Of a DNA stretch of 38,141 nt, positions 10,401 to 38,141 are shown one piece after another (the first letter of the stretch is position 1; every line of letters starts with the position of its first letter). A program made the translations under genes and the position numbers. A model generated the notes under the pieces. It searched no databases. It was not told the origin of the DNA and worked only from the letters and a program-made list of their open reading frames with translations. Source of the stretch: a virus; IMG/VR virus record IMGVR_UViG_3300048904_000185, positions 1 to 38,141 of that record, one strand, 5' to 3'.

Positions 10401-11498
10401 ACGCTTGCTGATTGGGCAAAATCGGCAAGCCTTTCGAGCGTCATGGGCACTGACAATAACATTACTCGTTTAGCAGCTGTTCCGGCGTCTGAGCCGAAGG
10501 GTACGAGTGCAGGCGATACACTCGGTGATACGGGTGCTGCGGCTGGTGCAAGCATTATAAATCAATATGTTCCGGCAATAACCCGTGATATTAACTCAGT
10601 TTTGAATAATTATACTGGTCTGAACCCAACGAAAGAGGCAGCCAATACAACGGTCCTTCAGACAAACCCAGCTACCGGCAATCAAGTAAAAGACAAGGGA
10701 GCTAGCGCTGGAGCCAGTATTCTTAATAACATCCCTGTTGCTTCACAACTCGCGTTGCCACGTAAGCAAGGTGTTGCATCGGCTGACCTTGTTGATCGTG
10801 TGACTCATGGCAGTAGTGATACTGCAACAACAAAGCAGCAACGAGCAGACGCACAAACAAAGGCCGATCAGATAGCAGCAGATGCAAAGGCTGGAATCCC
10901 GAACCCTGACGCAACATATAAACAGGGTGACAGTTTTGCTAATGCTGTCGAAAATCGTATTGAGAATAGTCAATACGACCAAGCAATAGCTGGTTTGAAG
11001 GAGCAATTAACAAAGCTTAAATCTGGTGATAATCCAACAAAAGCACAAACTGACCCTGTAGAAAAGCAGATTAAAGAGACGCAAGTACTGAAAGATGGAA
11101 ACTACGACCCGGCAATTCGTGATCTCTATAAACAAACGACGCAGTCACAGTGGCGTGACATGGGTGACCCGAACAGTGATGGATATGACCCAAAGACATA
11201 CGAAATGCTATGGCAGTATCAGAATGACCTTGTGAAGGCAGGTCTTAACACGACTGTCGCTGGTGTGAATACAAATAAATATAGTCCAAAAGCCCCAGCA
11301 AAGGGTCGAAGTGGCAGCGGTGGCCGCGGCGGCTCAACAAGCGCGGCTGGGGGTACCATTAGCCCTGTCGAGCTGAAAAACATCAGCCTGGGTAGCCTTA
11401 GCCCCCAGAAAATCAGCAACGCACCAATCCCAACTATTAGACAGATAAAGCCCACAGATTTGCCAAAAAAGCGTACAATATCAATTAGTAAGGGTTAA
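7431..11498 (+). CDS. large (1355 aa) virion protein, internal core/ejection- or tape-measure-like
   Basis: Longest ORF in the window. N-terminal poly-Q and Pro/Gln-rich region, Gly/Ala-rich hydrophobic segments, long helical regions, C-terminal GRSGSGGRGG. Size and position next to tail tube-like genes recall T7 gp16-class proteins. No catalytic motif seen. Confidence 0.55.
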   Translation: MDFLSNIFHGIGDFVGGLLNGNNNDQRKRQQQQQQSFSAPAPQSSVQPGFHSALPGVVTQTTTQAPAVNLYQAPAANQLQKPAAPRPTPAQPQQPFAAPAQLTRPLPTVGQITGIQTPQAPSTGPGFNPVNWVADNIVKPTADVAGKVANTGIGGIALAGNALSAGADQLFRGGKNANFYQNEANAINNNFLAPGKGLFGAGGFQTGKDFETESPAQALGAGIGAGAQVAPYLIGNPEGALIDKFGNVIGDKFVNAAASTLAKKGSQYAVQGAITAPAVASANAVEQGIATGKFDPGQSIQTGLASIPAAILGSAGGDALHALGTKVGTGRPETQAILPGEAAPGVASVNPNRETDAISQMTPPAEQMPSPQEQVPAVTPEAPQPVVPPQVLATTELPRIPETAAPQQAPAAPATHDMLVKQLGDQGKGFKKNYTTRDIINLDDLKQKATGVINNMDDESLVRSFQTADPETIVTNPQSFAVARAAVERLSKNADDPASVQTVSNLLDAMDKASSRSGQMQRIVREEFDSMPVPMKARYIMKQIDKANVGDNEYVPLRDRPDEAALIDQTITSGLNKSEAIANRVSQIQDQLNQVAEAAKNGQKSDVNVGDLAVALKDAEMELGASNGELVKYYQTLVPKRSIGQKTNDFARNAMLSSFTGRVNDIATTATNMAQQSLQNTVQGAIAKGVNAFSPGKVLDTSRGTGAFWRGTLEGVGKGAREFTNEIQAGDLQKSLKNGSMGKRTQLAKSQNPLGRTIQASTEFATHASEGVRDQRLYQLAIQEAQKAGIPRNLRDQYASARAAVPSRDMLDNAQKLHDTVNNLNDNPISNKLRSIVDAIDPPGAAKKGNKAQAWAGGLLRNQILPFTSWAGGNIWNGVTDRNVVAAAVKLGNSIRKGDADGIVENLAKTAIHGGETYALGYLLSQNGTITNKDANGNSYDGLYLHAGDRYIPVAFTGFFAPSIILGHAAYQAINSGKDPASAIGDFAGNTLADWAKSASLSSVMGTDNNITRLAAVPASEPKGTSAGDTLGDTGAAAGASIINQYVPAITRDINSVLNNYTGLNPTKEAANTTVLQTNPATGNQVKDKGASAGASILNNIPVASQLALPRKQGVASADLVDRVTHGSSDTATTKQQRADAQTKADQIAADAKAGIPNPDATYKQGDSFANAVENRIENSQYDQAIAGLKEQLTKLKSGDNPTKAQTDPVEKQIKETQVLKDGNYDPAIRDLYKQTTQSQWRDMGDPNSDGYDPKTYEMLWQYQNDLVKAGLNTTVAGVNTNKYSPKAPAKGRSGSGGRGGSTSAAGGTISPVELKNISLGSLSPQKISNAPIPTIRQIKPTDLPKKRTISISKG

Positions 11499-16519: not shown

Positions 16520-17656
16520 ATGAGCGAAATTGAATCACCAGCCGCAGCGGTAATGCCAGATGCTTCAGCACCACAGGTACCAGAGCCTGTTGCACCGATA
16601 GCACCAGAACCAGTTGCACCAACAAACGATCAGCAGCAGGCAGACCCAAATGCCCCATCTAATATCACAGATGACGAACAGGCAGAATGGGACGAAGCCG
16701 CGAAATCGCTTGGCTTTCCAGGTGTAAAATCAACTGCCAAAAAAACTGATGAGGAGCAGCAACCTAATGGGCAAGATGAACAGCCGAAAGCAGACGAAGC
16801 GACGACAACGACAACAACTGTTGTCCCGGAAACGCCAACAACAGATACAACTACAGTCGCGCCAGTTGAAGCCACTGAAGACGGCGATGAAGAAGCGGGC
16901 CAACCTGATACCTCCATCAGGGATTCTCGGGCTATCGCTCGAGAGGTAGCTCAACAGCTTGAAGAAACAAAAGCAAATGTTCGTGAGCAATTATTCGGTG
17001 ATACGCCACGTGCGCTTATTGATAAGGATGGCAACGAAATTAAAGATTCCAGCGATGTTATGCAGTATGTCAACCCTGCGACAAAGACCGAGGAAAACCC
17101 CGAAGGCCGTCTATTTACTCGTGAAGAGGCAGATCAATGGCTTGCGTATCAGCGTAGCGAAATAAATACGAAAGTCGCTGAAAATGAAAAAGAAGTTGAG
17201 CGAATCGCCAATATCAATATCGGTATTGCTGACCAGGCTGACTCAATCAACGAGCAGTATGGTGAAATTCTCAAGGCTGACCCCGAACTCCGTGCAGAGT
17301 TGTGGAAGCAATATAGCAAAACACTTGTTACCAAAAAGGGTAAAGATGCTGAGGGTAAAGAAATCGATATCATTGTCGATGCTCCATATTCACTTGAGGA
17401 ATACTACCGCAACGCTCTTGAGCCACGCGCTGAAATCGGTCGTCAGCTAGAGGCCCAGGAAGCAGCTCAGGCTGCCGAAGCTGAGCGTCTTAAGCAGGAG
17501 CAGGAAAAACAGCGCAAGGAAAGCCGCCAAGACCGCTCTGATATTTATGGCGGAAGTGGCGATAAAGGCGGTATTGTCAGCGACGAAGCAAAAGAGTGGG
17601 ATGCGGCCGCAGCTGCTGTATTCAGCCCCGATCAACTAAACGCATTAAAGAAATAA
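16520..17656 (+). CDS. scaffold-like protein (acidic, coiled-coil, Thr-run near the N-terminus)
   Basis: 378 aa. GGGGGATAG RBS region. Highly charged helical C-terminal half (EAQEAAQAAEAERLKQEQEKQRKE). Lies between portal and capsid genes. TTTTTT...TTDTTT at 16802-16855. Confidence 0.5.
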   Translation: MSEIESPAAAVMPDASAPQVPEPVAPIAPEPVAPTNDQQQADPNAPSNITDDEQAEWDEAAKSLGFPGVKSTAKKTDEEQQPNGQDEQPKADEATTTTTTVVPETPTTDTTTVAPVEATEDGDEEAGQPDTSIRDSRAIAREVAQQLEETKANVREQLFGDTPRALIDKDGNEIKDSSDVMQYVNPATKTEENPEGRLFTREEADQWLAYQRSEINTKVAENEKEVERIANINIGIADQADSINEQYGEILKADPELRAELWKQYSKTLVTKKGKDAEGKEIDIIVDAPYSLEEYYRNALEPRAEIGRQLEAQEAAQAAEAERLKQEQEKQRKESRQDRSDIYGGSGDKGGIVSDEAKEWDAAAAAVFSPDQLNALKK

Positions 17657-17668
17657 GGAGAATGAGTC

Positions 17669-18241
17669 ATGGCTATTAAATGGTGGAATATCCGCAGTAA
17701 AGAAATCCGTATATCAGAGACTGAACCACATACCGCTGCAATGTGGGCAAGTTCAGATCATAGTCCGAACATTACCCAGGGACAAGATTTTGGTTGGCGT
17801 TTAGCCCCAGAGGTCGTTGTCGAAATGAAAAAAATCAAGCAAGACTTGCCAACGCTTACTGAGATTGCACGTCAGATCATGAAACAAACTGATGAAATTA
17901 CTGAGCCGGATATCTTGATGTATATCTCTGCGAAGTACGATGATAGTAATGCGCCACAGGCTGATGATGGCGACTACACAGATGAGTACGACGCCGAAAT
18001 TCGTCGTCTACAGGCTCAAGCTGATCGTGACAATAACCCACTTCCAGTTACCGAAACGACCACTGAAAGCCTCGCAGACTTGCAGAAACGTGTTGAGCTG
18101 CAAGAGCGTCTCGCAGCTGCCAAAAAAGTTGAGGAAGCACCTGTCACTACTACCACTACAGAAACACCTACAACGACAACCACCACCGTAAAACAAGCTA
18201 ATACTGGTCGTACTACAACGACGACTACGGAGGCAAAATAA
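17669..18241 (+). CDS. head-module protein with a C-terminal Thr-run tail
   Basis: 190 aa ending ...APVTTTTTETPTTTTTTVKQANTGRTTTTTTEAK (Thr-rich region 18146-18229). Function unknown (decoration protein, head fibre and small terminase are all open). Confidence 0.5.
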   Translation: MAIKWWNIRSKEIRISETEPHTAAMWASSDHSPNITQGQDFGWRLAPEVVVEMKKIKQDLPTLTEIARQIMKQTDEITEPDILMYISAKYDDSNAPQADDGDYTDEYDAEIRRLQAQADRDNNPLPVTETTTESLADLQKRVELQERLAAAKKVEEAPVTTTTTETPTTTTTTVKQANTGRTTTTTTEAK

Positions 18242-18492
18242 TGCAAGACGGCGAACGTGAACTGACCTATGGTGAGAAAATGGCTGGGGTAAATTTTAAT
18301 CCTAGTGCAATACCAGTGGTTGATGATGTTAAGAAATCTGCTGCAAGGTTTATCGATGATATTGTAGGCGATACCTATGATTTGCAGAGTGTTGCAACGC
18401 CAGAACAAAAGCTAATGCTTGAACAAGCAGTTATGCTTGCTCTTCAGGCACAAATGCTTACGGTTAAAGCTATCACCTATCGTCATAAATAA
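18241..18492 (+). CDS. small protein resembling the N4 gp49 / Sf6 gp66 family (possible Acb2-like cyclic-nucleotide sponge)
   Basis: 83 aa. ...LTYGEKMAGVNFNPSAIPVVDDVKKSAARFIDDI...LEQAVMLALQAQMLTVKAITYRHK. The FNPS...V..VK...A..ID...AQM..VKA.T pattern matches my memory of that family. Not verified by search. Confidence 0.4.
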   Translation: MQDGERELTYGEKMAGVNFNPSAIPVVDDVKKSAARFIDDIVGDTYDLQSVATPEQKLMLEQAVMLALQAQMLTVKAITYRHK

Positions 18493-18495
18493 TTG

Positions 18496-18501
18496 TATAA
18501 T
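18496..18501 (+). promoter_or_regulatory. perfect TATAAT box upstream of 18537
   Basis: attgTATAATtga lies in the 44-nt gap, 35 nt before the ATG. No convincing -35. Confidence 0.3.
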
Positions 18502-18536
18502 TGATTTTGTGAATAACTAATAAAGGGGACTATCTC

Positions 18537-18869
18537 ATGGCAACAGAAAGCGGAACTGGCACTGGCCCAGAATCACCAACCACAACTACCACAACTGAGG
18601 CGGAAGTTACGACGACAACTGCCACCACAGAAGAACCAACCACGACTACCACCACAGTCGATAGTACTGAGGAAGATTTCAACTCTCAAGATGAAGCTGC
18701 GGCACAAGAAAAGGCATTTGAAGATGCTGTTGCAGCTGGTCGGAATACTGAAGTCGAAGAGCCAGCAGACGACCACATCCTTGGCGACAACGAAACAACA
18801 CATGGCGAATTACTCGCCAACGCTCGTGCAGAGGCTCTTGCCAATCACGAAGCTGAGCACGCTGAATAA
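18537..18869 (+). CDS. small acidic protein with N-terminal Thr runs
   Basis: 110 aa, with RBS AAAGGGG. SPTTTTTTEAEVTTTTATTEEPTTTTTTVDS at 18579-18656. Its stop codon directly abuts the terminase stop codon (TAA|TTA). Confidence 0.5.
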   Translation: MATESGTGTGPESPTTTTTTEAEVTTTTATTEEPTTTTTTVDSTEEDFNSQDEAAAQEKAFEDAVAAGRNTEVEEPADDHILGDNETTHGELLANARAEALANHEAEHAE

Positions 18870-20240
18870 TTAACTAGCGGGTTTATACTGGGCGGCAGCT
18901 GCGAAGCTGTCGCTTTCATATGTCTCTTGGCCACCTGCCTCGAATAGGAAGTTACCAGCATCATCGAAGAATTGTCTAATCGCTGCAAACATATAGCGAA
19001 CTGAGTCAGCCGCGTGCGACTCAGTTTTATGTTCTGGCCCCATATACTCGCCTGTATCAGGATTCCACTTACGGGAGTATTTAAGGAGTTTTTCGCGCAG
19101 TTGTTTGGTTGTCTCGGTATTCATGAATGACTTTATGATTTCTTCAACAGCACGCTGTATACCGTGCTCCTTGCCTTCGCGGGTGATAATCGATATGTTG
19201 GTCAGACCAAGGGCCTCAAGCTTCTGTATGCGCTCGATAGCGTCGCTCTGTTCACGGACATTAGCATCGTGCGGCACAAAATGCCAGCCGTAGTTGTATG
19301 GTTTCAGTTTGAGGGCAGCCACTATGGTGTTATAGGCTACATCATGGGTTTCGTAATAATCGATAATAAACAGCTGTTTGTTCACATACTGGAAGAAGGT
19401 TATGGCTGTGCTATCGCCGGTACCAAGGTCCCAGGCGGTATAAACTGGCCATTCACTGCGCCATGGCACATCACGAATACGGCCTCGTTTTTCTAGCTGC
19501 ATGAGGGCATTGCCATAGTAGCTTGTTTCGCTCACCTGGCCCCAGTCACACATGTACTCCTGCATAAACTTAAAGTTACTACCGTACTTCTCGATAATTT
19601 CTTCTTCGAGGTCTTTGAGGATTTCTTTTGATAGGAAGTGGTCGGCAGTGATACGGCTGGCGAACTGGGTTTTGTCACCCTCTGTCCACTTCCTAAAGGC
19701 ACGCTCCCACATCTTTTTAAAGGCAGCACCAGAGGTACCATCGACTTTTGGCGTCGACTGGACGATGATTTGACCACCGTTCACAGCAATGATTGGACGG
19801 ATAACTTCGTAGGCCTCGCTACTAATATCAACGAACTCAGAGAAGATATATAGCTTGCCGTTCGCACCACGTAGTGCTTCAGGGTCTTTGGCACCGAGTA
19901 GCGACAGCACACTGCCGTTTTTAAATATAATTTTCATATTAGTTTCGCTGTTTGTACGACTCGCAACAATGCCCTTTGGTATGTGGTCGAAGATCTTTTT
20001 GCCATCGTTTTCAGTAGTGTTCCAAAAGTTGTCATACCCCTGTTTCATAGTCGGCCAAACGATGACAACGTTCATTGGCTCTTGTACCATCTTTTTGATA
20101 GCATAGGCAAAAGCAGTGAAGTCTTTGCCACCACGACGGGCCCAGCACCATACTGAAATGGTGACACCGAGATCGAGTGCAGCCAGCGCCTCGGCTTGGT
20201 AGTCGCGCGGGTCAAAGTAGAGTGGTACTTGTATAGCCAT
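18870..20240 (-). CDS. terL: terminase large subunit
   Basis: 456 aa. N-terminal ATPase (YQAEAL..., WCWARRGGKDFTAFAY Walker A-like, IFSEF Walker B-like). C-terminal nuclease motifs (YTAWDLGTGDSTAITFFQ, HFVPHDANVRE, HAADSVRY). Confidence 0.9.
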   Translation of the reverse strand: MAIQVPLYFDPRDYQAEALAALDLGVTISVWCWARRGGKDFTAFAYAIKKMVQEPMNVVIVWPTMKQGYDNFWNTTENDGKKIFDHIPKGIVASRTNSETNMKIIFKNGSVLSLLGAKDPEALRGANGKLYIFSEFVDISSEAYEVIRPIIAVNGGQIIVQSTPKVDGTSGAAFKKMWERAFRKWTEGDKTQFASRITADHFLSKEILKDLEEEIIEKYGSNFKFMQEYMCDWGQVSETSYYGNALMQLEKRGRIRDVPWRSEWPVYTAWDLGTGDSTAITFFQYVNKQLFIIDYYETHDVAYNTIVAALKLKPYNYGWHFVPHDANVREQSDAIERIQKLEALGLTNISIITREGKEHGIQRAVEEIIKSFMNTETTKQLREKLLKYSRKWNPDTGEYMGPEHKTESHAADSVRYMFAAIRQFFDDAGNFLFEAGGQETYESDSFAAAAQYKPAS

Positions 20241-20272
20241 AGATGATGCCTGTGTTTATCATTTGTTGTAAT

Positions 20273-20290
20273 AATAGCATAAATGCTATT
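20273..20290. promoter_or_regulatory. perfect 8-bp-arm palindrome (AATAGCAT aa ATGCTATT), candidate operator
   Basis: Read in the divergent terL/capsid gap. Its right arm overlaps the TTGCAA -35 box by 2 nt (20289-20290). No U-run, so it is unlikely to be a terminator. Confidence 0.35.
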
Positions 20291-20318
20291 GCAATTAGAG
20301 AATCATTACCGCTATAAT
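20289..20318 (+). promoter_or_regulatory. sigma-70/sigma-A-type promoter for the capsid operon
   Basis: TTGCAA (20289-20294), an 18-nt spacer, then TATAAT (20313-20318), 53 nt upstream of the capsid ATG. RBS ACGAGGA. Confidence 0.55.
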
Positions 20319-20371
20319 GTCTTTGTCATACAGGCGGACACTTATATAAAGTTTTTAACGAGGATACTCAA

Positions 20372-21220
20372 ATGGCATACGGTACAAAAACCGCAAACGT
20401 CATGGACATCCCACTGAGCATTAGTTCGGTTTTTACCCCTTACGTGGGCGACCAGGGCTATAAGTGGGACGGCCTGAACAGCGTCCGTGTCCTGTCTATT
20501 GCAGACGGTTCACTGTCGAACTACGACGAAACCAGCGCTACTGCCCCATTCGGCAGTCCATCGCTCGTCGTGCCAAATGAGCAAGTTCTGGCATTGGCTT
20601 ACAACAAGTCGATGTTGCTCCGCATCCAGCGCACCCAGATTCAGGACATTCCAGTTAGCCAATTCGCAAAGCAAGTTGCTTTGCAGCAAGCTAACGATGT
20701 GTTTGTCCCAGCGCACGACGCTTACTCATTGGGTAAAGTGTTCGCAGCGCGCCCTTCCGGTAACGTGACTGCCGTAAATACAAGTCGCAACGATAATGGT
20801 CTTCAGACCATGATTAACAAAATCCGTACTGCGGGTGGTAATCTTTCAAACGTTGTTTGTTGGGTTACGTACACCTTCGCAGCTACCATCCGTGACAAGA
20901 TCAACTACACTGGTAGTGACGCTGGTTACGCAAATGGTCAGAACGGCTACCTTGGGAAGATCGCCGGTGTTACAACCGTCGAAGTGCCTGATCTCTACCT
21001 GTTCGCAGGTGTGAGCGCTCTTGCAGCTGACAAACGAGCAATCGTCAACGTCACTCCTAAGATGGACCCAAAGCGTGATTTGGTTGTCATCGACCCTGTG
21101 CCATCGTTTAGCGGTGTTGAGCTTCAGCTCCGTGACCGTGCAGACACATTCGTGTTGAACAAAAAAGTCAACGCAGTTGCATCACTTGAAACTGCTGCTT
21201 CGACCACAACGACTACTTAA
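20372..21220 (+). CDS. major capsid protein (putative), C-terminal TTTTT tail
   Basis: 282 aa with its own strong promoter and RBS. Position follows the portal/scaffold block. The sequence style resembles small HK97-fold podovirus coat proteins. It ends ...LETAASTTTTT (Thr codons 21203-21217). Confidence 0.65.
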   Translation: MAYGTKTANVMDIPLSISSVFTPYVGDQGYKWDGLNSVRVLSIADGSLSNYDETSATAPFGSPSLVVPNEQVLALAYNKSMLLRIQRTQIQDIPVSQFAKQVALQQANDVFVPAHDAYSLGKVFAARPSGNVTAVNTSRNDNGLQTMINKIRTAGGNLSNVVCWVTYTFAATIRDKINYTGSDAGYANGQNGYLGKIAGVTTVEVPDLYLFAGVSALAADKRAIVNVTPKMDPKRDLVVIDPVPSFSGVELQLRDRADTFVLNKKVNAVASLETAASTTTTT

Positions 21221-21236
21221 TTGGTAGCCGCACGGT

Positions 21237-22106
21237 ATGAAAATAATATTGTGTCAGCCAGCGATCAAACGCTTCCAATGGGAGCTTGAGGTCCTGCTGA
21301 CCAATATTAGGCAATTCGGTAACTTTGAAGTCGTACTCTTATTTACGGAGTACGACTTTACTGTTCCGATGTATTTCCGTAATAAGTACCCGGAGTGTGA
21401 GGTATACACCTACCCTGAGCGCGCTAACCGCGCATACATTCCGTCAGTACGCCCGTACTTGTGGTGGAAATATCTATCGGAGGACCCAAGCCGCGAAAAA
21501 GAAACCTATCTTTATATCGATAGTGACGTCATTTTTCGTGAAATGCTAGATTTTGCGACATTAGGTGCAGACGCCGACCACTGGGTTGGTAGTGACTGTT
21601 CGAGCTATATTAGCTATGATTACATGTCAAAATGCGAAAAGGGTGATATAATTGCCGCAAAAATGGCTGAAATAACTGGTGTAACAATCGACCAGATGAA
21701 GGCTACGCCAGGTGCAGGCGCACAGTGGGTTATCACCAATCCTACCGCTGAGTATTGGAAACGAGTCTACGACGACAGTAATAGTATCTACAACTATTTT
21801 AGTGGCGTTGATAGCAATATCCAGAAGTGGACCGCCGAAATGTGGGCACAGCTATGGGGTATGGTGCGTGAGGGTAAAACGGTGCTTATGCCGAAAGAGA
21901 TGGACTTTATTATGTCCACGAACCCAGCTGATGACTATTATGGAGTAAAAATACTCCATAATGCAGGGGTTACTGGCTCTGACGATGGTTGGTTCTTTAA
22001 GGGGGCATTTGCTGATGAATCACCCCTTGGCCGCGACTGGGATGGTATTCGGACTGATAAAGCAGTATGGCATTATATACAGGCGCTTAAAAAGGTAGTA
22101 GTATAG
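21237..22106 (+). CDS. GT-A-fold glycosyltransferase-like protein
   Basis: 289 aa. ETYLYIDSDVIF (DxD at aa 95-97, nt 21519-21527) follows a hydrophobic strand. A later KILHNAG His lies at aa 241. The spacing is reminiscent of Mn-dependent GT8-like enzymes. Motif-level evidence only. Confidence 0.55.
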   Translation: MKIILCQPAIKRFQWELEVLLTNIRQFGNFEVVLLFTEYDFTVPMYFRNKYPECEVYTYPERANRAYIPSVRPYLWWKYLSEDPSREKETYLYIDSDVIFREMLDFATLGADADHWVGSDCSSYISYDYMSKCEKGDIIAAKMAEITGVTIDQMKATPGAGAQWVITNPTAEYWKRVYDDSNSIYNYFSGVDSNIQKWTAEMWAQLWGMVREGKTVLMPKEMDFIMSTNPADDYYGVKILHNAGVTGSDDGWFFKGAFADESPLGRDWDGIRTDKAVWHYIQALKKVVV

Positions 22107-22129
22107 GGGCAGCATAAGGGGCAATAAAC

Positions 22130-22909
22130 ATGGATTATGACTACTTACCAGTAAGCAACGGTTCCGGAGACTCAGCACTAATGCACATCATGGCCGACCG
22201 GTCGGTCGGTGCTACTTCGTTTACTGTTGATGGTACAGTCAACGTCGCTACAAAGTTCATTGGTACGACAGGCACACTCCTGTCAACTGGTTATATTGAC
22301 CCCACCACCAAAAAAGATATTAAGATGCACAAGGTTGACTCAACCCATGTCGCAATCGACGCCTTCGAGCCAGGTTTTACTGATACCGGTAATACAACTG
22401 GCCAGGTAATCGTTGTCAAGCCGAATACTGGCTGGGCAAACCGCGTCGCTAGTCATATTAAGAATATGACGGGCTTTGGTACCCCAGAGAGTGTCACTGT
22501 AGCAGGTCTGACGGCCTCGAGTAACGTAAGTGTTGGTGGGAATCTGACCGTGACCGGCAGTCTAACTGTCAGTGGTGGCCAGCGGCCGAACCCTCGCTCG
22601 TCGTCAACCACCTCGGTGACGACACTCACTCCAAACATAGACACATACAACTTCTACGACCTGACAGCACAAGCCGCTGGGCTGACAGTCGCGAACCCAA
22701 CGGGCACACCTCGTGATGGTGATGTTATACTCATCCGTATTAAAGACAATGGTACGAGCCAAACAATCACCTATGGCACTGCCTATACAAATATCAGTGG
22801 GCTTGATAGCCTAGTCGCGACGACAATTAGCAAGTGGCACACGATTGGCGCTGTTTACGAAGCGACAACCTCGAAATGGCAGATAGTTAGCATAACTACG
22901 GAGGCGTAG
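22130..22909 (+). CDS. tail fibre/receptor-binding-like protein
   Basis: 259 aa with RBS AAGGGG. Beta-rich with VGGNLTVTGSLTVSGG-type fibre repeats. Confidence 0.45.
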   Translation: MDYDYLPVSNGSGDSALMHIMADRSVGATSFTVDGTVNVATKFIGTTGTLLSTGYIDPTTKKDIKMHKVDSTHVAIDAFEPGFTDTGNTTGQVIVVKPNTGWANRVASHIKNMTGFGTPESVTVAGLTASSNVSVGGNLTVTGSLTVSGGQRPNPRSSSTTSVTTLTPNIDTYNFYDLTAQAAGLTVANPTGTPRDGDVILIRIKDNGTSQTITYGTAYTNISGLDSLVATTISKWHTIGAVYEATTSKWQIVSITTEA

Positions 22910-22913
22910 GAAA

Positions 22914-23630
22914 ATGTCTAACTGGGATAGAAATTATTCAAACGGGAGTTACTTCAACAACTGGCATGGCCGATTGGTTTACAATCTCAATTCGCAAAAT
23001 GTTGGGGCAAATACCTCGAATATCTCGCTAACCCTACAAACTTTTGCAGATAGTGGTGCATACAGCCAAAACGGTAGCTGGGACCCGAGGATTTATATCA
23101 ATGGTGGTCTTGTAGCCGCTCCTGGCGGTAGTCACTCTATTGGCGGTTCAACACCATTTACGCTAGCATCATGGTCTGGCGACGTTGGACATGATGCAAA
23201 TGGTAACTGGTCAGGCTCGATAGGCGATTATATCAATGCTCCTATCAATGAAATGACCTATGATGCGATTGGTTGGACCCTACCTCGTTTGCCGCTTGCC
23301 CCCTCGATTGCAGGCAATACTGTCGATCAGATTACACCAAAGTCAGCACGGCTTGGTACTGAAATAAGTAGCTATGGTCATGGCACAAGCGCGGCCTGTC
23401 GATTCTACTATCGTATACAAGGTATAGGGTCATATACGGCAACTGGCGATCAAACCGACGTTGCGGGCTACAATTATTTCAATATCACAGGGCTAAAGCC
23501 TGGTAAAACATACGAATACTACTCATATTGGTATAATAATAACGGAGATGTTTCTACATCTGGTGTATCAACGTTCAAAACCAAGGGAATAGCCAGCATG
23601 GTACCCCTGCTGACAAGTTTGGCTTCATAA
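22914..23630 (+). CDS. tail-associated protein with a C-terminal FN3-like domain
   Basis: 238 aa. PLAPSIAGNTVDQITPKSARL...FNITGLKPGKTYEYYSYWYNNNGDVS...FKT fits the fibronectin type III pattern. Confidence 0.5.
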   Translation: MSNWDRNYSNGSYFNNWHGRLVYNLNSQNVGANTSNISLTLQTFADSGAYSQNGSWDPRIYINGGLVAAPGGSHSIGGSTPFTLASWSGDVGHDANGNWSGSIGDYINAPINEMTYDAIGWTLPRLPLAPSIAGNTVDQITPKSARLGTEISSYGHGTSAACRFYYRIQGIGSYTATGDQTDVAGYNYFNITGLKPGKTYEYYSYWYNNNGDVSTSGVSTFKTKGIASMVPLLTSLAS

Positions 23631-23648
23631 AGCAAAGGTTATGCTAAT

Positions 23649-23915
23649 ATGAAAGAGCAAATAAGACTAAACAACGGTAAGAAAATGAAAATAAACGACC
23701 CAGATGTTGCCGAACTACAGAATCTCGACGACCACGATTTGCTTATTATCATGCATACTCAGATGATAAATTTGCGCTCTGAGGTGAAGGATATAAGAAA
23801 GAATTTTGCTCCTAAATGGGTGCAGCACGTCGTAACATTCATCATCGTTGGATTTGGTAGTGCGGTTATTACTGGGTTAGCTAATCTCGTGGTTCACGCG
23901 GTAGGAGGCAATTAA
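23649..23915 (+). CDS. small membrane-anchored coiled-coil protein (XhlA-like architecture)
   Basis: 88 aa. N-terminal charged helix (LRSEVKDIRKNF) plus a C-terminal TM (WVQHVVTFIIVGFGSAVITGLANLVV). Confidence 0.45.
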   Translation: MKEQIRLNNGKKMKINDPDVAELQNLDDHDLLIIMHTQMINLRSEVKDIRKNFAPKWVQHVVTFIIVGFGSAVITGLANLVVHAVGGN

Positions 23916-23916
23916 A

Positions 23917-24309
23917 ATGGCAGGTGTTATTGAATTTACCCGAGGCGATGGTGTTCACCATTCGCTACTTATTCCTACCGCGAACTGGACAGCAGGTGGT
24001 ACACTCTTTTTTGGCGCAAAACCCGCGATCGACGATGATGCAACAGATACCGTTGCTGTGCTAAAGAACTCATGGACAGACTCTGCTACCTCCGATGTTA
24101 CGGTGAATGGTGTAGCGTATAAAAAATATGACTGCTATTTTCCGCACGCGGTTACTTATCCTATCGATAGTGGTGGAGCCGATGAGTTAGATCTCCTCGG
24201 AGAATTTCAGTGGGTACCTGCTGGTGGTGGCGACCCTATTACTTTTCCAGCTAGCAATGACAAGCTCGATTGCAAAATTTACTTCGATGTTAACCGAAGG
24301 ACATCATAA
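23917..24309 (+). CDS. tail/baseplate-associated small protein
   Basis: 130-aa beta-rich ORF, translationally coupled to the fibre gene (ATAATG overlap at 24309). Confidence 0.4.
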
Positions 24310-26039
24310 TGGCAGAGTTTGTTATTGTTGGCGATGACGAAACACAAGCGATCGTCCAGACGGGTGATACAGTCAATATCACTGTTGATGGTGCGCTCAA
24401 GGGTGAGAAGGGTGATACCGGCCCAGTTGGTCCAACTGGTGATACTGGCCCCATAGGTCCGACCGGCGCTACGGGTCCAACAGGACCACAGGGTCCAACA
24501 GGAGCGTCCGGGTCGGCTGCTACTATCAACGTAGGAACGGTCACAACTGGCACAGCTGGCTCCTCAGCAGTTATTACGAATAGCGGCACAACCTCGGCCG
24601 CTGTGCTTGATTTTACGATTCCCCGGGGTGATACAGGTGTCCAGGGTATCGCGGGTGTTGAGGTGCAAACAACCGCCCCCGCAGACCATACAGTTGTTTG
24701 GGTAGACCCAAGCGATAGCGCGCCGAGTCTTGGCCTACTGCCAGCTGGAGGTACTTCTGGCCAGGTGCTCGCGAAAAATTCAAGTACTGATTATGATGCT
24801 CACTGGGTAGCGGCCGGTACGGGTGATATGGCGAAGGCGACTTATGACCCTGCAAATATTGCACAGCAATTAGTCGGTACGACAGCTACGCAGACCCTAA
24901 CTAACAAAGATCTTACCGCTGTTACAAATACATTTCCCATTTTTAACCAAAATACAACAGGTAATGCTGCAACTGTCACGACAAACGCCAATATGACTGG
25001 CGATGTCACGAGTGTTGGTAATGCAACGACCTATAACAACGTAGTACCTGTCACAAAGGGCGGTACAACCTTAACGGGCTTCACGAATAACACATTTATC
25101 ACCGCTAATAGCACTACGACTCTTCAATCAAGCAAAGTAGTTCCTACAGGTACTGTTGTTGGCACGAGCGATACACAGGTACTTACTAATAAAGATCTCA
25201 CATCGGGCACCAACACGTTTCCGACGCTCAATCAAAATACTACCGGCAGTGCAGCAAAGTGGACAACTGCGAGAAATCTTGCGGGTAACTCTGTTGATGG
25301 CTCGGCCAACGTTGCATTTACGAATAAGTTTATTGTTCAGGGTACAACAGACGCAGGACTCTCTGGTGCGCAATTCCTTGGAGCGCTGGCTACAGGTATA
25401 GTTAAGAACACAACAACGACAGGTGTACTATCAATTGCCGTAGCTGGTGACTTCCCAACGCTTAACCAAAATACGACGGGCAGCGCAGCGACCCTCACAA
25501 CAGCACGCACTATACAGACAAACCTTGCGAGCACCTCAAGCGCTTCATTTGATGGTTCTGCAAATATAACTCCAGGTGTGACGGGTACACTACCGGTCGC
25601 GAATGGCGGCACGGGCGCTACGACATTAACTGGTATCCTCAAAGGTAGCGGCACAAGTGCTGTTACAGCGGTTACGGCCCCTACTGGCGCTATTGTCGGT
25701 ACGACAGACACACAGACGCTATCTGCTAAGACGCTAACAACTCCGACGATAAATGGTGTTGTTATGGCTATTTCAAGTAAGACAGCTAACTACACACTCA
25801 CGGCAACAGATTATACGGTGTTATTTGATACTACATCTGGTGCTCTCACAGCAACCCTTCCAGCAGCGTCAAGCAACAGTGGTGCGGTGTTCAATATTAA
25901 GCATACGGTTGGGTTATCAGCTGTTACGATCGCCGTAACTGGTGGTGATACAATTGATGGTCTTTCGACATACTCGCTCACAAATCCATATGATTCAGTA
26001 ACTTTGCACTCAACAGGCAGCGCCTGGATGATATTATAG
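24309..26039 (+). CDS. tail fibre with a collagen-like Gly-X-Y stretch and repeated [10 protein letters not shown] / NQNTTGSAA modules
   Basis: 576 aa. 13 consecutive G-X-Y triplets ([39 protein letters not shown]) at 24402-24518. Three to four copies of the VGT.DTQ.LTNKDLT...NTFP.LNQNTTG.AA module. Confidence 0.8.
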
Positions 26040-26048
26040 GAGTTAGAC

Positions 26049-27230
26049 ATGGCATACTCACAAAAATCACGAAAACTCTCACTCGCCGATACAATAAAAC
26101 CGGCAAGCAATGTGACATACCCAGCATCAGATATTACCGCTATCACAAATAGTACCACCGCACCAACTTATACGGGTGGCTGGAACTTCCTTTTTAATAC
26201 CGGTGGTCAGCCACAGCGTATGCTTTATGGCTTCACCTGGTACAACTACAGTGGTAATGGTGTCAAAGCTGACAGCGGCGCGACACAGCCTGGTACGGCC
26301 TCTCTTGAGCCATGGCAGGTTGAGTTTTATCATCTAGGCAATGACTTTGCTTTTTGGTCAGTGAACCTTGTCCAAGCGGATTTCATAATTTACGTCGATG
26401 ATATGCCACTCACCTCAGATTGGGCACAGACTAATGCAACAGCATTCAGTAGTAACTATTACCGAGTGCAGTTTGCTACCACCAAAATGCGCCGTATTCG
26501 CATCCTTTGTAGCGGCCTTACAACCTTTACAGGCATTATGCACGCAGCAGGTGGTAATATGTGGGCGGCACCGCAACGCTTTCGTTGTGCGGTTGTCGGC
26601 GATAGCTATATTCAGGGCGGTCACACTGACTCAGTTGAGGGTAGTATCCAAGGTGCAGCGTTTGGCAATCAACTTGCTATACAGACAGGCTGGGAGGTAT
26701 TCACACAAGGTCAGGGTAGCACTGGCTACATAAACAACGGCGGTAACACTGGTGGTAAAGATGTTTACGGGGCAACATCTCGTATATCAACACTACAGGC
26801 TCTCGCACCGCTCGATCTGATTATCGTTTATGGTAGTGGAAATGACTCTGGCTACACAGGGTCAGCAGTCGCAACAGCAGTCAATGCCTACTGGAATAGC
26901 CTTGCAACTAATCTTCCTGGTGTACCTATTATTGTATTCGGTGTCCAACCTGGTTCACCATCAGGTTTCACCCCTAGTCTGCTTGACTCGACGAATACTG
27001 TCATTAAGCAACAGGCTGCTATTAACCCGAACGTCGCTGGGTTTGTCGATATGCGTGATACGACAACTGGCGTACAGCCATGGGTAACAGGTACAGGCAA
27101 TACAGGTGCACCTGTCTACGATGGTAATGCTGATAGTTTCATTTGCTCAGACGGTGTACATCCTACTCGTGAAGGATATCGTAATATGATAGAGCACTCA
27201 GTAGCAGCGCTCAGAAAGATAAAGATATGA
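26049..27230 (+). CDS. SGNH/GDSL-family hydrolase (tail-associated esterase)
   Basis: 393 aa. Block I AVVGDSYIQGG, block III VYGSGNDSG, block V SDGVHPTREGY. Preceded by an unassigned N-terminal domain of ~180 aa. Its stop overlaps the next fibre gene. Confidence 0.75.
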   Translation: MAYSQKSRKLSLADTIKPASNVTYPASDITAITNSTTAPTYTGGWNFLFNTGGQPQRMLYGFTWYNYSGNGVKADSGATQPGTASLEPWQVEFYHLGNDFAFWSVNLVQADFIIYVDDMPLTSDWAQTNATAFSSNYYRVQFATTKMRRIRILCSGLTTFTGIMHAAGGNMWAAPQRFRCAVVGDSYIQGGHTDSVEGSIQGAAFGNQLAIQTGWEVFTQGQGSTGYINNGGNTGGKDVYGATSRISTLQALAPLDLIIVYGSGNDSGYTGSAVATAVNAYWNSLATNLPGVPIIVFGVQPGSPSGFTPSLLDSTNTVIKQQAAINPNVAGFVDMRDTTTGVQPWVTGTGNTGAPVYDGNADSFICSDGVHPTREGYRNMIEHSVAALRKIKI

Positions 27231-28747
27231 GTCAACCAGCAGTAAAGTATTGGGATTCAGTAGCCGGTGCCTGGAAATATTTATTACAGGGACCTAAAGG
27301 CGACCCAGGAGCGGGTAATGTCACTGGACCTGGCTCGTCAACGAACAACGATATTGTGGTATTCAGTGGTACAACTGGTCAAATAATTGCCGATGGCGGT
27401 AAAACACTACCTACGGGCTCTGTGGTTGGTACTACTGATACCCAAACACTCACTAATAAAACTCTTACAGCTCCAGTAACAACATCGATTACCCCAACTA
27501 CCGGCTACACTTATGACGTTGGTAGCGCAGGTGCTCCATATAACAACGTATGGGCCGGGTTTAGCATAAACATTCAGAATAGTGGTATAAACACTGAGAT
27601 TATTGCCGGTGCCAATGGTACTAATAAGATCCTGACATTACCCCTCGGAACTGATACTATCGTTGCGCGTAACTCTACTGATACCTTGACTAACAAAACA
27701 CTAACTAGCCCAATCATCAGTACTATCTCAAATACCGGCACTCTTACGCTGCCAACTTCTACAGATACACTAGTTGGGCGTGCGACTACTGATACGCTCA
27801 CAAATAAAACACTAACCTCTCCAACGATCTCTAGTCCATCACTTACTGGTAGCGCTACTACACCAGGCGGCACAACTGGTACTAATTTCAGTCTTACTAC
27901 AGGCACTGGTACAGCAGGCAATGGTGGTAATATATCGCTTACTGGGGGTGGTGCAAGCGGTGGTAACAATGCTGGCTCTGTCACTATATCCGCCGGAAAC
28001 GGTAGCGGTACATCTAACTCTGGCTACGTAGAGCTCGATGCAGGCGTCGGCGGGGCCTCGAATGGCTGGATTGATATGGTTACAGCGAATTTCGCACGAT
28101 TCTATCGAAACGCCTCTAACTGGATAAAATTCGACTTATCATCGCAGTCTGGGCAAGCAACAGTCACGGCCCCATCGGGTACGTATGCTCTTGTTGGTGA
28201 TACGACTACTCAGACACTTACTAACAAAACACTTACCCGACCTGTATTTAGCGGCTATGGGCTTGTGGCCACACGGTCATCTGACAGTTCAAGTATCACA
28301 ACATCTGAGACTGTAGTGCTATCTGGCACCATACCGACAGCAGTTGTTGGTAGTACTTATAAATTCGTCATATATGGCGAGGCAACGTCATCTGCCGCCA
28401 ATACCGTAACATTCAAGATGAGGGCGGGTACATTAGGTACAACATCAGACCCTCAGATCGGTACCCGTGCCTACACATCTGCCACGACAGGTACTAGTGC
28501 TGGCTGGAAACTTGAGGTGATATATATAGTCACGGCGACAGGTGCTACGGGTACTGGCAGGTTCGGCGCGACCCTATCAACTACGGTCGGCGCTGGAATA
28601 ATTGCCGACCAGATAAACAGCATATCTTGGACATCGAGCGCGAACCTTGATACGACTACGGCAAACACGCTGTCTATAACAATCTCTACCTCTGCGTCTA
28701 CTACATCGTTGGTAGCTAAGTCTGGCACATTCGAGGTTCTTAAATAG
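27227..28747 (+). CDS. second tail fibre (TDTLTNKTLTSP repeat modules, short GPKGDPG collagen-like start)
   Basis: 506 aa. Four copies of (V/I)(V/A)G..T(D/T)T(Q/L)TLTNKTLT. Gly/Thr/Ser-rich beta-helix-like centre. Confidence 0.7.
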   Translation: MSQPAVKYWDSVAGAWKYLLQGPKGDPGAGNVTGPGSSTNNDIVVFSGTTGQIIADGGKTLPTGSVVGTTDTQTLTNKTLTAPVTTSITPTTGYTYDVGSAGAPYNNVWAGFSINIQNSGINTEIIAGANGTNKILTLPLGTDTIVARNSTDTLTNKTLTSPIISTISNTGTLTLPTSTDTLVGRATTDTLTNKTLTSPTISSPSLTGSATTPGGTTGTNFSLTTGTGTAGNGGNISLTGGGASGGNNAGSVTISAGNGSGTSNSGYVELDAGVGGASNGWIDMVTANFARFYRNASNWIKFDLSSQSGQATVTAPSGTYALVGDTTTQTLTNKTLTRPVFSGYGLVATRSSDSSSITTSETVVLSGTIPTAVVGSTYKFVIYGEATSSAANTVTFKMRAGTLGTTSDPQIGTRAYTSATTGTSAGWKLEVIYIVTATGATGTGRFGATLSTTVGAGIIADQINSISWTSSANLDTTTANTLSITISTSASTTSLVAKSGTFEVLK

Positions 28748-28752
28748 TCATG

Positions 28753-28761
28753 TGCTATAAT
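28753..28761 (+). promoter_or_regulatory. extended -10 promoter (TGcTATAAT) ahead of the lysis cassette
   Basis: tgTGCTATAATac lies in the 46-nt gap, 32 nt before the GTG start at 28794. No -35 box. Confidence 0.4.
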
Positions 28762-28793
28762 ACAACCACTAACAGTATATAGGAGAAACACAG

Positions 28794-29948
28794 GTGCCTA
28801 ACGCTGAACTATCAATACAGTGGTACACTGACCGTCAAGGTAAAGTAACCTACTCGATGACAAATCGTCGTGGACCAAACAGCTACGACTGCTCAAGTGC
28901 ACAATATTATTCACTCATACAAGGCGGTTATCTCCCTGTAGGTATCTACATCGGTAATACTGATAGCCTCTTTGGAGATCTCGAGAAATATGGTTGGCAG
29001 CAGATTCAACCAAACTCGCAAGGAAATTATGACACGCAACGAAATGACATTTTTATTTGGGGTCGCCGTGGCGCTTCTAGCGGTGCTATTGGTCATACTG
29101 GCCGATTTATCGACGCGAACAACGTGATTCACTGTAATGCTTACTTTAATGGCATCTCTATAAACGATTATGATGGTCTACAGGCGGCAAATGGCTGGCC
29201 AACAGCTACCTACTATCGCTATGTCGGAGGTCAGGTAATTACCCCTGAGCCAGTCGATCAGGTAGTCAACCCTGGCTCATACATCCAATTTGGCACAATC
29301 TACCGTGTTGACGACGTGCAGCAGTATGCTGGCCTCTGGCAAGTACGTACCGACGTGCTCTGTCCTGTCGGCTTCACTTGGGCAGACAATGGTATCCCAG
29401 CAGGCCCACTTTTCGAAGTTGACGCTGATGGCTATCGTAGCGACGATCAGGTACTCGAAGTAGGCTCCTGCTATGTATTGCCGGGCAAATATCAAGTACT
29501 AGATGTCGGGCAGTCAAATGGCCGCTGGCTCGCGCAGATTATGATTGATGGCTTTAAATTCTGGATCGATCTCGAGACAGTCACCGAGGTTGGTCCAAAC
29601 GACCCTGGTGTTCCAACACCCCCATCGCGTCCGCAGGTAACAACAACTACCACCACACTGGAGAAACCAAGTGAACCGATATCAACTACTACCACGACAG
29701 CGCCTATTGGAGTTACAACGACTGAACCAGTCACTACAACAACTACGGCACCCGTCCCTCCTACATCGACTACAACAACATCTATCCCCGATGATGCGCT
29801 GGAAGGAATCGACCTTGAGGGAAATGCTACGACCACGACGACCACGACGACCACAGCTTACCAGCTTCCGGTTGGATTTTGGGCGGCGTTCTGGCTCGGG
29901 GTCAAACAAACATTAACAGCCATACTAAGGCGGCTACAAGGGAGATAA
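28794..29948 (+). CDS. endolysin: Amidase_5 (Pal-type) domain + SH3b-like domain + Thr/Pro-rich extension + C-terminal hydrophobic helix
   Basis: GTG start with AGGAG 8 nt upstream. QGKVTYSMTNRRGPNSYDCSS and RNDIFIWGRRGASSGAIGHTGRFIDANNVIHCNAYFNGISINDYD match, from memory, pneumococcal phage Dp-1 Pal-type Amidase_5 lysins. The middle region (YRVDDVQQYAGLWQVRTD...NGIPAGPL) is SH3_5-like. Thr runs span 29640-29855. The tail is LPVGFWAAFWLGVKQTLTAILRRLQGR. Confidence 0.85.
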   Translation: MPNAELSIQWYTDRQGKVTYSMTNRRGPNSYDCSSAQYYSLIQGGYLPVGIYIGNTDSLFGDLEKYGWQQIQPNSQGNYDTQRNDIFIWGRRGASSGAIGHTGRFIDANNVIHCNAYFNGISINDYDGLQAANGWPTATYYRYVGGQVITPEPVDQVVNPGSYIQFGTIYRVDDVQQYAGLWQVRTDVLCPVGFTWADNGIPAGPLFEVDADGYRSDDQVLEVGSCYVLPGKYQVLDVGQSNGRWLAQIMIDGFKFWIDLETVTEVGPNDPGVPTPPSRPQVTTTTTTLEKPSEPISTTTTTAPIGVTTTEPVTTTTTAPVPPTSTTTTSIPDDALEGIDLEGNATTTTTTTTTAYQLPVGFWAAFWLGVKQTLTAILRRLQGR

Positions 29949-29950
29949 AC

Positions 29951-30199
29951 ATGGACCCGTTTAGTGTTATATTCATTGGTACAGTTATCATAGCTATCAC
30001 TGAAATAGTTAAAAGGTTGTGGCCAGATACAATCACAGGAGCGTTGACGATAATCGTAGCGCTGCTCGTAGGGGCTCTATCAGCCGTATTTAGTGACTGG
30101 CTTGGCCTGGCACACCTTGGCGTCGCACAGGGCGTCATAATCGCTCTCGCGTCCGTAGGGGTACATACAACAGCTGCCCCTAGTAATGCTAAGCAGTAG
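29951..30199 (+). CDS. holin (putative, three TM segments)
   Basis: The internal ATG at 29951 of track ORF 29879-30199 lies 5 nt after AAGGGAG and 2 nt after the endolysin stop. 82 aa with three hydrophobic helices (FSVIFIGTVIIAITEIV, ITGALTIIVALLVGALSAVF, LGVAQGVIIALASVGV). Confidence 0.65.
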   Translation: MDPFSVIFIGTVIIAITEIVKRLWPDTITGALTIIVALLVGALSAVFSDWLGLAHLGVAQGVIIALASVGVHTTAAPSNAKQ

Positions 30200-37983: not shown

Positions 37984-38128
37984 TGTCTGCCTCTTTCTCT
38001 AAATGCAACTCGTATTTCTTACCATTGACAACGAACTCGCCATCAATCGACTCTCTCTTGCCTGCCTCCATCGCCCGCACCAGTATCTCTACGGCTTGTA
38101 CGACAATGCTGCCCTCTGCGTCATTCAT
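37976..38128 (-). CDS. 50-aa junction-spanning ORF (not in the ORF track)
   Basis: Hand translation: MNDAEGSIVVQAVEILVRAMEAGKRESIDGEFVVNGKKYELHLEKEADNE. RBS GAAGGGG 7 nt upstream. The first 114 nt lie inside the terminal repeat. Confidence 0.45.
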   Translation of the reverse strand: MNDAEGSIVVQAVEILVRAMEAGKRESIDGEFVVNGKKYELHLEKEADNE

Positions 38129-38141
38129 AACTTAACCCCTT
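38015..38141. repeat. Terminal direct repeat copy 2 (identical to 1-127)
   Basis: See copy 1. The match is exact over 127 nt. Confidence 0.95.

Follow-up and report, generated by a model that had tools for sequence, protein, structure and literature searches.

Threonine runs that accompany a glycosyltransferase-fold gene in phage genomes: candidate O-glycan acceptor tags

The locus and its threonine runs

The analyzed DNA is IMG/VR virus record IMGVR_UViG_3300048904_000185, positions 1 to 38,141 (38,141 bp, ~47% G+C; this whole stretch is called the window below). Its subject here is a set of proteins with runs of consecutive threonines (Thr) and the glycosyltransferase (GT) gene that lies next to the major capsid gene. 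In the original prediction, made from the letters alone, the runs and the adjacent GT-like gene were regarded as a shared O-glycan tag system. Identical 127-bp direct repeats are present at both window ends (1-127 and 38015-38141), and the window is therefore probably a complete phage genome, with either terminal redundancy or a circular assembly overlap. No nucleotide match to the region was obtained among 50,697 deposited phages (megablast); by this search the phage is novel at the nucleotide level, and it was compared via its proteins.

The open reading frames (ORFs) of the window were translated and the runs located in the products (Tn denotes n consecutive Thr; aa, amino acids; nt, nucleotides). 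The 378-aa scaffold-like protein (16520..17656, plus strand) has T6 at aa 95-100 (nt 16802-16819), followed by TT-D-TTT to nt 16855, in a disordered acidic N-terminal region. The 190-aa protein of the head-gene block (17669..18241, plus strand) carries T5, T6, and T6 in its C-terminal tail (nt 18146-18229), and the 110-aa acidic protein (18537..18869, plus strand) carries T6, T4, and T6 near its N-terminus (nt 18579-18656). The major capsid protein (282 aa; 20372..21220, plus strand; matching phrog_422, major head protein) ends in ...AASTTTTT, where the T5 run (nt 21203-21217) is followed directly by the stop codon. In the endolysin (28794..29948, plus strand; Amidase_5 and ZoocinA_TRD by Pfam, a poly-Thr linker, and a C-terminal hydrophobic helix), T6, T5, T3, T5, T4, and T9 (nt 29640-29855) lie between the cell-wall-targeting domain and the C-terminal helix. 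The sole further run of at least four Thr (T≥4) is a T4 in a Thr-rich collagen-like fibre (25410-25421), and no replication or early ORF of the window has any.

The window proteome contains 14 T≥4 runs, compared with 2.3 ± 1.4 expected (maximum 8) in 2000 within-protein shuffles, and 11 runs of at least five Thr (T≥5), compared with 0.4 expected from the same type of shuffling. Other homopolymer runs of at least four residues number only five in the whole proteome (A, G, Q). Thr codons are used inside the runs as elsewhere (chi-square p = 0.82), and Tandem Repeats Finder (TRF) detected in the runs only 9-nt units in 2-3 copies. The ordinary mixed codons and the short TRF units indicate that the runs are not long slippage-prone DNA repeats and that they are maintained at the protein level. 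DNA slippage was thus ruled out as their origin. On these points the original prediction held: it had placed runs in the same five proteins at the same positions, had noticed none in the replication and early proteins, had taken the mixed codons as a sign of selection on the protein and not of slippage, and had proposed enrichment over shuffled proteomes as a check.

The glycosyltransferase gene

The GT gene (21237..22106, plus strand) starts 17 nt past the capsid stop codon and encodes a soluble protein of 289 aa. The protein matches phrog_4417 (E 6.1e-106, residues 1-287 on profile positions 1-291 of 293), a phage protein family that is annotated as of unknown function. Sequence searches gave no match in Pfam (E ≤ 10), in NCBIfam, or, by profile search, among PDB chains (E ≤ 10). 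In a collection of 5.8 billion proteins, 648 homologues were found, and among the 120 listed, none was annotated beyond 'hypothetical' or had a Pfam domain. The family is also present in 296 IMG/VR loci and 77 deposited phage records. These records include phages of Lactobacillaceae, Enterococcus, Staphylococcus/Mammaliicoccus, Lactococcus, and Clostridium, among other hosts, and homologues 39-51% identical to GT are listed among them.

The AlphaFold2 (AF2) model of GT, built with 38 homologues in the alignment, had a predicted local distance difference test score (pLDDT) of 96 and a predicted template modelling score (pTM) of 0.92. Foldseek gave 231 PDB matches at E ≤ 0.001, and the top 50 were all GT-A enzymes. 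The best of them were retaining GT-A enzymes (WbbM, the GT6 ABO transferases, alpha-1,3-GalT, LgtC of GT8, and the UGGT catalytic domain), all at probability 1.0. Fold matches in BFVD outside the protein's own family were GT8, GT6, and other nucleotide-sugar transferases, many of them giant-virus proteins. A hydrophobic strand is followed by D95-S-D97 (...TYLYIDSDVIF...), and H241-N-A-G...K255-G is likewise invariant. By modelled fold and motif, the product of 21237..22106 is a GT-A glycosyltransferase from an uncurated family, as the description of the gene as GT-like had anticipated. It is classed as GT8-like in fold only, and not as GT8, given that its sequence matched no family model.

The same residues bear on a reading in which the Thr runs would be sites of another, non-sugar modification (phosphorylation), or of self-association or adhesion, and the GT-fold protein would be a chaperone or assembly factor. 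The link between GT and the runs, described below, is a genetic one, and we infer catalysis, which leaves some room for this reading. D95, D97, and H241, the DxD and His of a metal/nucleotide-sugar site, are however invariant in the 38 homologues at 51-75% identity, as expected of an active enzyme and not of a scaffold. A chaperone or assembly role is accordingly given a very low probability.

Thr runs and GT in relatives of the window

Twenty-four IMG/VR contigs with capsids 52-79% identical to that of the window were divided into those with the GT gene (GT+) and those without it (GT-). The capsid had a poly-Thr tail in all 11 GT+ contigs and in none of the 13 GT- contigs. In the GT+ contigs, GT adjoins the capsid gene or lies close to it, and the capsids all end in A-S-T(n), e.g., ...LETAASTTTTT or ...ASTTTSTTATTVTAGP, with T18 in one case. 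The GT- capsids all stop right past the conserved ...LE motif. GT+ lineages are interleaved with GT- lineages on the capsid tree in at least three places; on this tree, there are at least three independent events.

Among these IMG/VR relatives, the 190-aa protein and the endolysin have homologues with T≥4 runs in GT+ loci only. Homologues of the 110-aa protein were detectable in GT+ loci only; all are Thr-rich (11-25% Thr), and most have Thr runs. The 190-aa protein consists of a conserved N-terminal domain, a helix, and a disordered C-terminal tail (AF2 pLDDT 81 overall; tail without secondary structure, pLDDT ~60), and 97 of its 120 homologues have T≥4 runs in the same C-terminal region. All four tags recur in a further complete relative (Logan contig, 38,241 bp; L182 and L187): the capsid ends in ...AASTTTTT and a 199-aa protein in ...KTTTTTTTAVK, each directly before the stop codon, a 78-aa protein reads MEDTTTTTTEEQTTTTTTT..., and the endolysin linker has T7, T7, T6, and T7.

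The endolysin linker

The architecture of the endolysin family is fixed: Amidase_5, ZoocinA_TRD, a low-complexity linker, and, at the C-terminus, either a hydrophobic helix or a membrane domain that resembles a holin. The linker is poly-Thr in 4 of the 120 listed homologues, that of the window included, and among the top ~30 homologues inspected, the remaining linkers are Pro-rich (e.g., PEPTPEP). All poly-Thr endolysins with readable genomes come from GT+ genomes (the window, L003, L005, L008, and L182/L187). Four Pro-rich endolysins were examined in their genomic context and had neither GT within 10 kb nor a T≥5 run. No poly-Thr was seen in the same-family lysins of Saccharibacteria metagenome-assembled genomes (MAGs) and other bacteria that were examined. 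Since the poly-Thr lysins are GT+ and the Pro-rich ones examined are GT-, linker composition appears to follow GT, though the comparisons span unrelated phages. An ordinary, enzyme-independent class of endolysin linker was considered and rejected, as poly-Thr linkers were placed only in GT+ genomes.

The C-terminal end of the family (29856-29948 in the window; P0124-P0149, L269-L288) is a hydrophobic or amphipathic helix, and longer homologues have a holin-like multi-helix membrane domain, which suggests membrane-tethered lysins or lysin-holin fusions. For the holin gene of the window, the ATG at 29951, 3 nt past the lysin stop, is the most likely start, and a TTG at 29879 is disfavoured. The best full-length genomic homologue of the endolysin is in a Cryobacterium genome (57% identity, possibly contamination). 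The next-best homologues are in MAGs of Candidatus Saccharimonadales/Saccharibacteria (TM7), some on contigs of 100-660 kb (L270-L288), and a homologue of the 190-aa protein (P0278) is on a 33-kb contig binned as Saccharimonadales. The phage family of the window may thus infect Saccharibacteria, a host assignment drawn from metagenome binning.

The same pairing in unrelated phage families

In Enterococcus phage phiFL1A, GT is gp51 and follows the gene for the major tail protein, which ends in ...TTTTTSTTTTTTSSTTTTTTTQASSK; the capsid-like gp45, 2 kb upstream, ends in ...TTTTTKPTTTTTKPTTTTTTTQG. In Lacticaseibacillus phage iLp84, the capsid ends in ...PTTTTTTTSK and the tail tube in ...ETTTTTTTSK, and a 126-aa protein with 34% Thr is encoded between the capsid gene and GT. 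Over the whole genomes, every T≥4 run of phiFL1A is in the capsid or tail-tube protein, all T≥5 runs of iLp84 are in the capsid, tail-tube, and gp8 proteins, and neither lysin has any.

IMG/VR relatives of both phages were fetched by capsid. In the phiFL family, capsid tails were present in 12 of 12 GT+ loci and 0 of 58 GT- loci (Fisher p = 9e-14), and tail-tube tails in 12 of 12 and 0 of 55. In the iLp84 family, the capsid tail was present in 36 of 36 GT+ and 0 of 34 GT- loci (Fisher p = 9e-21); the tail-tube tail was present in 32 GT+ loci and absent from 2, and present in 2 GT- loci and absent from 15 (p = 5e-9). The tail that does not adjoin GT lies 2-3 kb off in both families. Two GT- loci of the iLp84 family (L151 and L153) keep a poly-Thr tail-tube tail, and one GT+ locus (L110) has a tail tube without one.

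Beyond these families, a T≥5 run was present in one or more ORFs of each of 79 further GT+ IMG/VR loci (79 of 79); most of these runs are C-terminal in ORFs of capsid or tail-tube size. Poly-Thr is also found beside GT in VPE25, Clostridium phage phiCTP1, Staphylococcus phage vB-SscS-F1, and the Herelleviridae myovirus Semele. Small Thr-rich proteins adjoin GT in iLp84, Staphylococcus phage F1, and Semele, and in VPE25 the runs are in an unannotated gap at that place. The N-terminal half of the Semele poly-Thr protein reads like an FN3 domain. Taken together, there is strict co-gain and co-loss of GT and tags in several unrelated phage lineages, as judged from these sequence comparisons.

The runs might be nothing other than unmodified hydrophilic spacers that reflect the usual composition of proteins in the phage or host lineage and have no connection to GT. 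Low-complexity linkers are common in endolysins, and the Pro-rich linkers at the same place in lysin homologues indicate that a spacer role exists regardless; GT- capsids of the phiFL family, too, bear short A/P/G-rich C-terminal tails. The runs nevertheless track GT and not lineage. In the iLp84 family, GT- capsids that are 94-99% identical to GT+ ones end in ...KVLIPKP, so that near-identical capsids have or lack the tail strictly by GT. The G+C contents of GT+ and GT- loci overlap, and across the three capsid families the density of T≥5 runs is 1.90 per 10 kb in GT+ loci (59 loci) and 0.05 in GT- loci (118 loci), a 38-fold difference. Candidate host-lineage DNA, ~500 kb from bacterial genomes encoding related lysins, had 0-0.11 T≥5 runs per 10 kb compared with 2.9 in the window, and the Saccharibacteria lysins were essentially free of such runs. 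A lineage habit, which the original prediction had named as a check on itself, was ruled out by the GT+/GT- contrast and by this host-lineage DNA, and the spacer explanation as a whole is considered improbable.

A different substrate for GT was weighed against the DNA of L106 and L111, a pair of 99%-identical iLp84 relatives of which one is GT+ and the other GT-. Phage glycosyltransferases that modify O-antigen, teichoic acid, and hydroxymethylated DNA are well known. GT could likewise act on cell-wall polymers, teichoic acids, a receptor (with exclusion or serotype conversion as the effect), or phage DNA, while poly-Thr travels with it on one mobile cassette; in iLp84, a single replaceable block does comprise the capsid tail, gp8, and GT. 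L106 and L111, however, differ by two separate replacements: one comprises the capsid tail, the Thr-rich gp8, and GT, and the other the tail-tube tail alone, 2 kb away beyond conserved genes. Linkage alone therefore cannot explain the pairing. Tags that lie 2-7 kb from GT, beyond conserved genes, co-vary with it, and in the loci examined GT always lies within the structural module, with a capsid or tail-tube gene as its neighbour. GT also occurs in apparently lytic genomes, the window among them: general scans of window ORFs brought up no integrase. Nor did these scans show any genes for base hydroxymethylation. Another substrate for GT is accordingly judged very improbable.

An unrelated siphovirus (L185, 1962-9488, and L186; Logan SRR29078260 and SRR29078104) has four GT4-type genes, a Fic protein gene, and a methyltransferase gene directly after the capsid gene and ahead of the lysin gene. 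The capsid lacks a Ser/Thr tail, and there are no Thr runs in the locus; the GT4 cluster may be a different glycosylation cassette.

Interpretation and proposed mechanism

The Thr runs are probably O-glycan acceptor tags for the phage-encoded cytoplasmic GT, a reading for which we have good though not full confidence. The enzyme and the tracts appear and vanish together, on disordered, exposed termini of non-homologous structural proteins and even between near-identical genomes, as would be expected if the tracts were the acceptor sites of the enzyme. The proposal of a shared tag system with the adjacent gene is in this respect upheld by the GT-A fold, the DxD motif, the all-or-none co-occurrence, and the 38-fold difference in run density. 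We infer Thr as the modified residue, and likewise the donor sugar. The likeness to retaining GT-A enzymes suggests an alpha linkage, and the presence of just one enzyme gene points to monosaccharides on many neighbouring Thr and not to a long glycan.

Under this proposal, the soluble GT would be made late in infection together with the capsid protein. In the cytoplasm, it would take a host nucleotide sugar and O-glycosylate stretches of ~4-9 consecutive Thr in disordered termini and linkers of late proteins. The sites would be C-terminal in the capsid and the 190-aa protein, N-terminal in the 110-aa protein, and in the linker of the endolysin; the scaffold-like protein may be a further target. 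Every capsid subunit and a few accessory proteins would thereby bear a dense, mucin-like brush of sugars. The likely role of the brush would be a protective or stabilising one, keeping these segments from proteolysis, aggregation, unproductive sticking, or recognition, as a hydrophilic protease-resistant coat on the capsid (in siphoviruses on the tail tube too) and as protection of the flexible linker in the endolysin.

Several observations count against this interpretation. The enzyme might in principle have another acceptor. The capsid tail adjoins the GT gene, and linkage alone could explain that pair, though not the distant tags. The pairing is broken in the rare recombinants L110, L151, and L153; such orphan tags and untagged subunits are presumably products of recent recombination. 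Some GT+ genomes encode a 190-aa protein without the tag, and a fold search with the AF2 model of that protein gave no PDB match (best E 1.3). The endolysin is not a virion protein, and a shielding role is thus not directly transferable to it. Lastly, of the five proteins in the original prediction, the run of the 378-aa scaffold-like protein is poorly conserved, with only L009 among the relatives having runs in the homologue. The scaffold-like protein is a weak and uncertain member, and its run may be incidental. Each of the three other explanations set out above is contradicted by part of the evidence, and even jointly they are judged unlikely.

Other genes in the window

The window also encodes a primase/helicase, an SNF2 helicase, and a tail protein (profile matches). 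The large terminase gene (terL, 18870-20240; PHROG match) is on the minus strand inside an otherwise plus-strand structural module; in six relatives (L017-L020, L022, and L023) it is on the plus strand, which looks like an inversion polymorphism within one phage family. Two Thr/Gly-rich fibre genes (24309-28747) stand on either side of a GDSL-family esterase gene (26049-27230). In the first of the two fibres there are N-terminal collagen G-x-y repeats and repeated TQTLTNK(D/T)LT motifs, and the esterase may be a tail-associated enzyme that deacylates host surface polysaccharide. A 1355-aa ORF (7431-11498) is kept across the phage family and contains a Q6 run. The 378-, 110-, 586-, 692-, and 1355-aa proteins had no match in PHROG, Pfam, or NCBIfam.

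Implications

To our knowledge, a few mycobacteriophages are the only phages with demonstrated virion glycosylation, which has been regarded as rare. We consider it somewhat more probable than the contrary that GT and a minimal poly-Thr peptide (~5-10 residues) form a portable, self-contained glyco-tag system whose horizontal spread has reached phages of podo-, sipho-, and myovirus type. Its range would comprise phages of Enterococcus, Lactobacillaceae, Staphylococcus/Mammaliicoccus, Lactococcus, and Clostridium, and probably of Saccharibacteria. A phage that acquires GT would then evolve Thr tails on whichever exposed termini benefit.

If this is true, sugar-coated virions would be common in phages of Gram-positive bacteria, including therapy candidates such as VPE25, and the reported scarcity of evidence for virion glycosylation outside actinobacteriophages would be contradicted. 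The locus points to a different enzyme family with a very simple acceptor signature that can be read from sequence. The large 'hypothetical' phage family PHROG 4417 would gain a function. Models of the capsid surface of Gram-positive phages would change, be it for cryo-electron microscopy density, for the immunogenicity and clearance of therapeutic phages, or for their adsorption to mucus and cell-wall debris. The compact pair of enzyme and peptide tag could also serve for glyco-engineering of phages and proteins. Cultured carriers include phiFL1A-C, VPE25, iLp84, PLE3, Semele, and vB-SscS-F1, and near-isogenic enzyme-negative relatives occur naturally.

Comparison with known glycosylation systems

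A full-text search of the literature found no report tying PHROG 4417 or poly-Thr tails to phage glycosylation, an absence that is not proof. By structure, GT shares with GT8, GT6, and GT24 enzymes (LgtC 1g9r, ABO GTA/GTB, alpha-1,3-GalT, UGGT) and with WbbM the fold, the hydrophobic strand with DxD, and a His near the C-terminus. There is no detectable sequence relationship to them, and the structural alignments had a template modelling (TM) score of ~0.5 at 9-14% identity.

Capsids of chloroviruses and giant viruses (PBCV-1 Vp54, mimivirus fibrils) are glycosylated by virus-encoded enzymes. The likeness lies in a virus whose own cytoplasmic GT-A-type enzymes decorate its own capsid, and the BFVD neighbours of GT include giant-virus GT8/GT6 proteins. 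Those viruses differ in that they infect eukaryotes and use multi-enzyme pathways; the PBCV-1 glycans are N-linked, and poly-Thr tags are lacking.

The serine-rich repeat (SRR) adhesins (GtfA/GtfB with GT8-type extension enzymes) and the Ala/Ser/Thr-rich domain of Lactiplantibacillus plantarum Acm2 are O-glycosylated in the cytoplasm. As in the proposed system, a low-complexity tract of hydroxy-amino acids is the target in a Gram-positive cytoplasm, and Acm2 is a peptidoglycan hydrolase, comparable in this to the endolysin. The tracts of the window are short pure Thr runs, in contrast to the long SxSx repeats, and the system of the window is phage-encoded. In the window ORFs to which Pfam was applied, there was no hit to a GtfA/B-type GT-B enzyme (Glycos_transf_1 or related), and no genes for SecA2/Y2 export were seen.

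The closest parallel in operation is with mycobacteriophages. The virions of Che8, Corndog, and Myrna are reportedly O-glycosylated, with acceptor sites at the C-termini of the capsid and tail-tube proteins, and outside actinobacteriophages there is said to be little evidence of virion glycosylation. PMC11256854 confirms the capsid glycans and the 'glycan shield', and both PMC11256854 and PMC12894461 describe this virion O-glycosylation and cite Freeman et al. 2023 (Cell Host Microbe 31:1216) for it. As in Che8, a phage-encoded glycosyltransferase (here assigned by modelled fold) is proposed to modify major virion subunits. The capsid tag here is C-terminal and present with GT, and both the capsid and the tail tube carry poly-Thr tails in the phiFL and iLp84 families. 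In the window itself, no gene for a tail tube could be recognised.

The Che8 enzymes, by Pfam a GT2 protein with a methyltransferase, a GT2 protein, and a GT25 protein, are encoded in the far right arm of the genome. Neither BLASTP (E ≥ 0.07) nor profile hidden Markov models (E ≥ 0.11) gave evidence of homology between any of the three (gp108-110) and GT, and homology to the Che8 system was ruled out by these values and by the GT2/GT25 domains. The Che8 capsid ends in ...NKTGS and its tail tube in ...YSDGS, with no poly-Thr there. The system of the window comprises, in contrast, one uncurated GT-A enzyme in the structural module and homopolymeric Thr acceptors, and it includes the endolysin and other non-capsid proteins among the tagged ones. 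Its hosts belong to Bacillota, or possibly to Saccharibacteria in the case of the window itself, and those of the Che8 system are Actinobacteria. By sequence comparison, the present system would work like the Che8 system but is no member of it.

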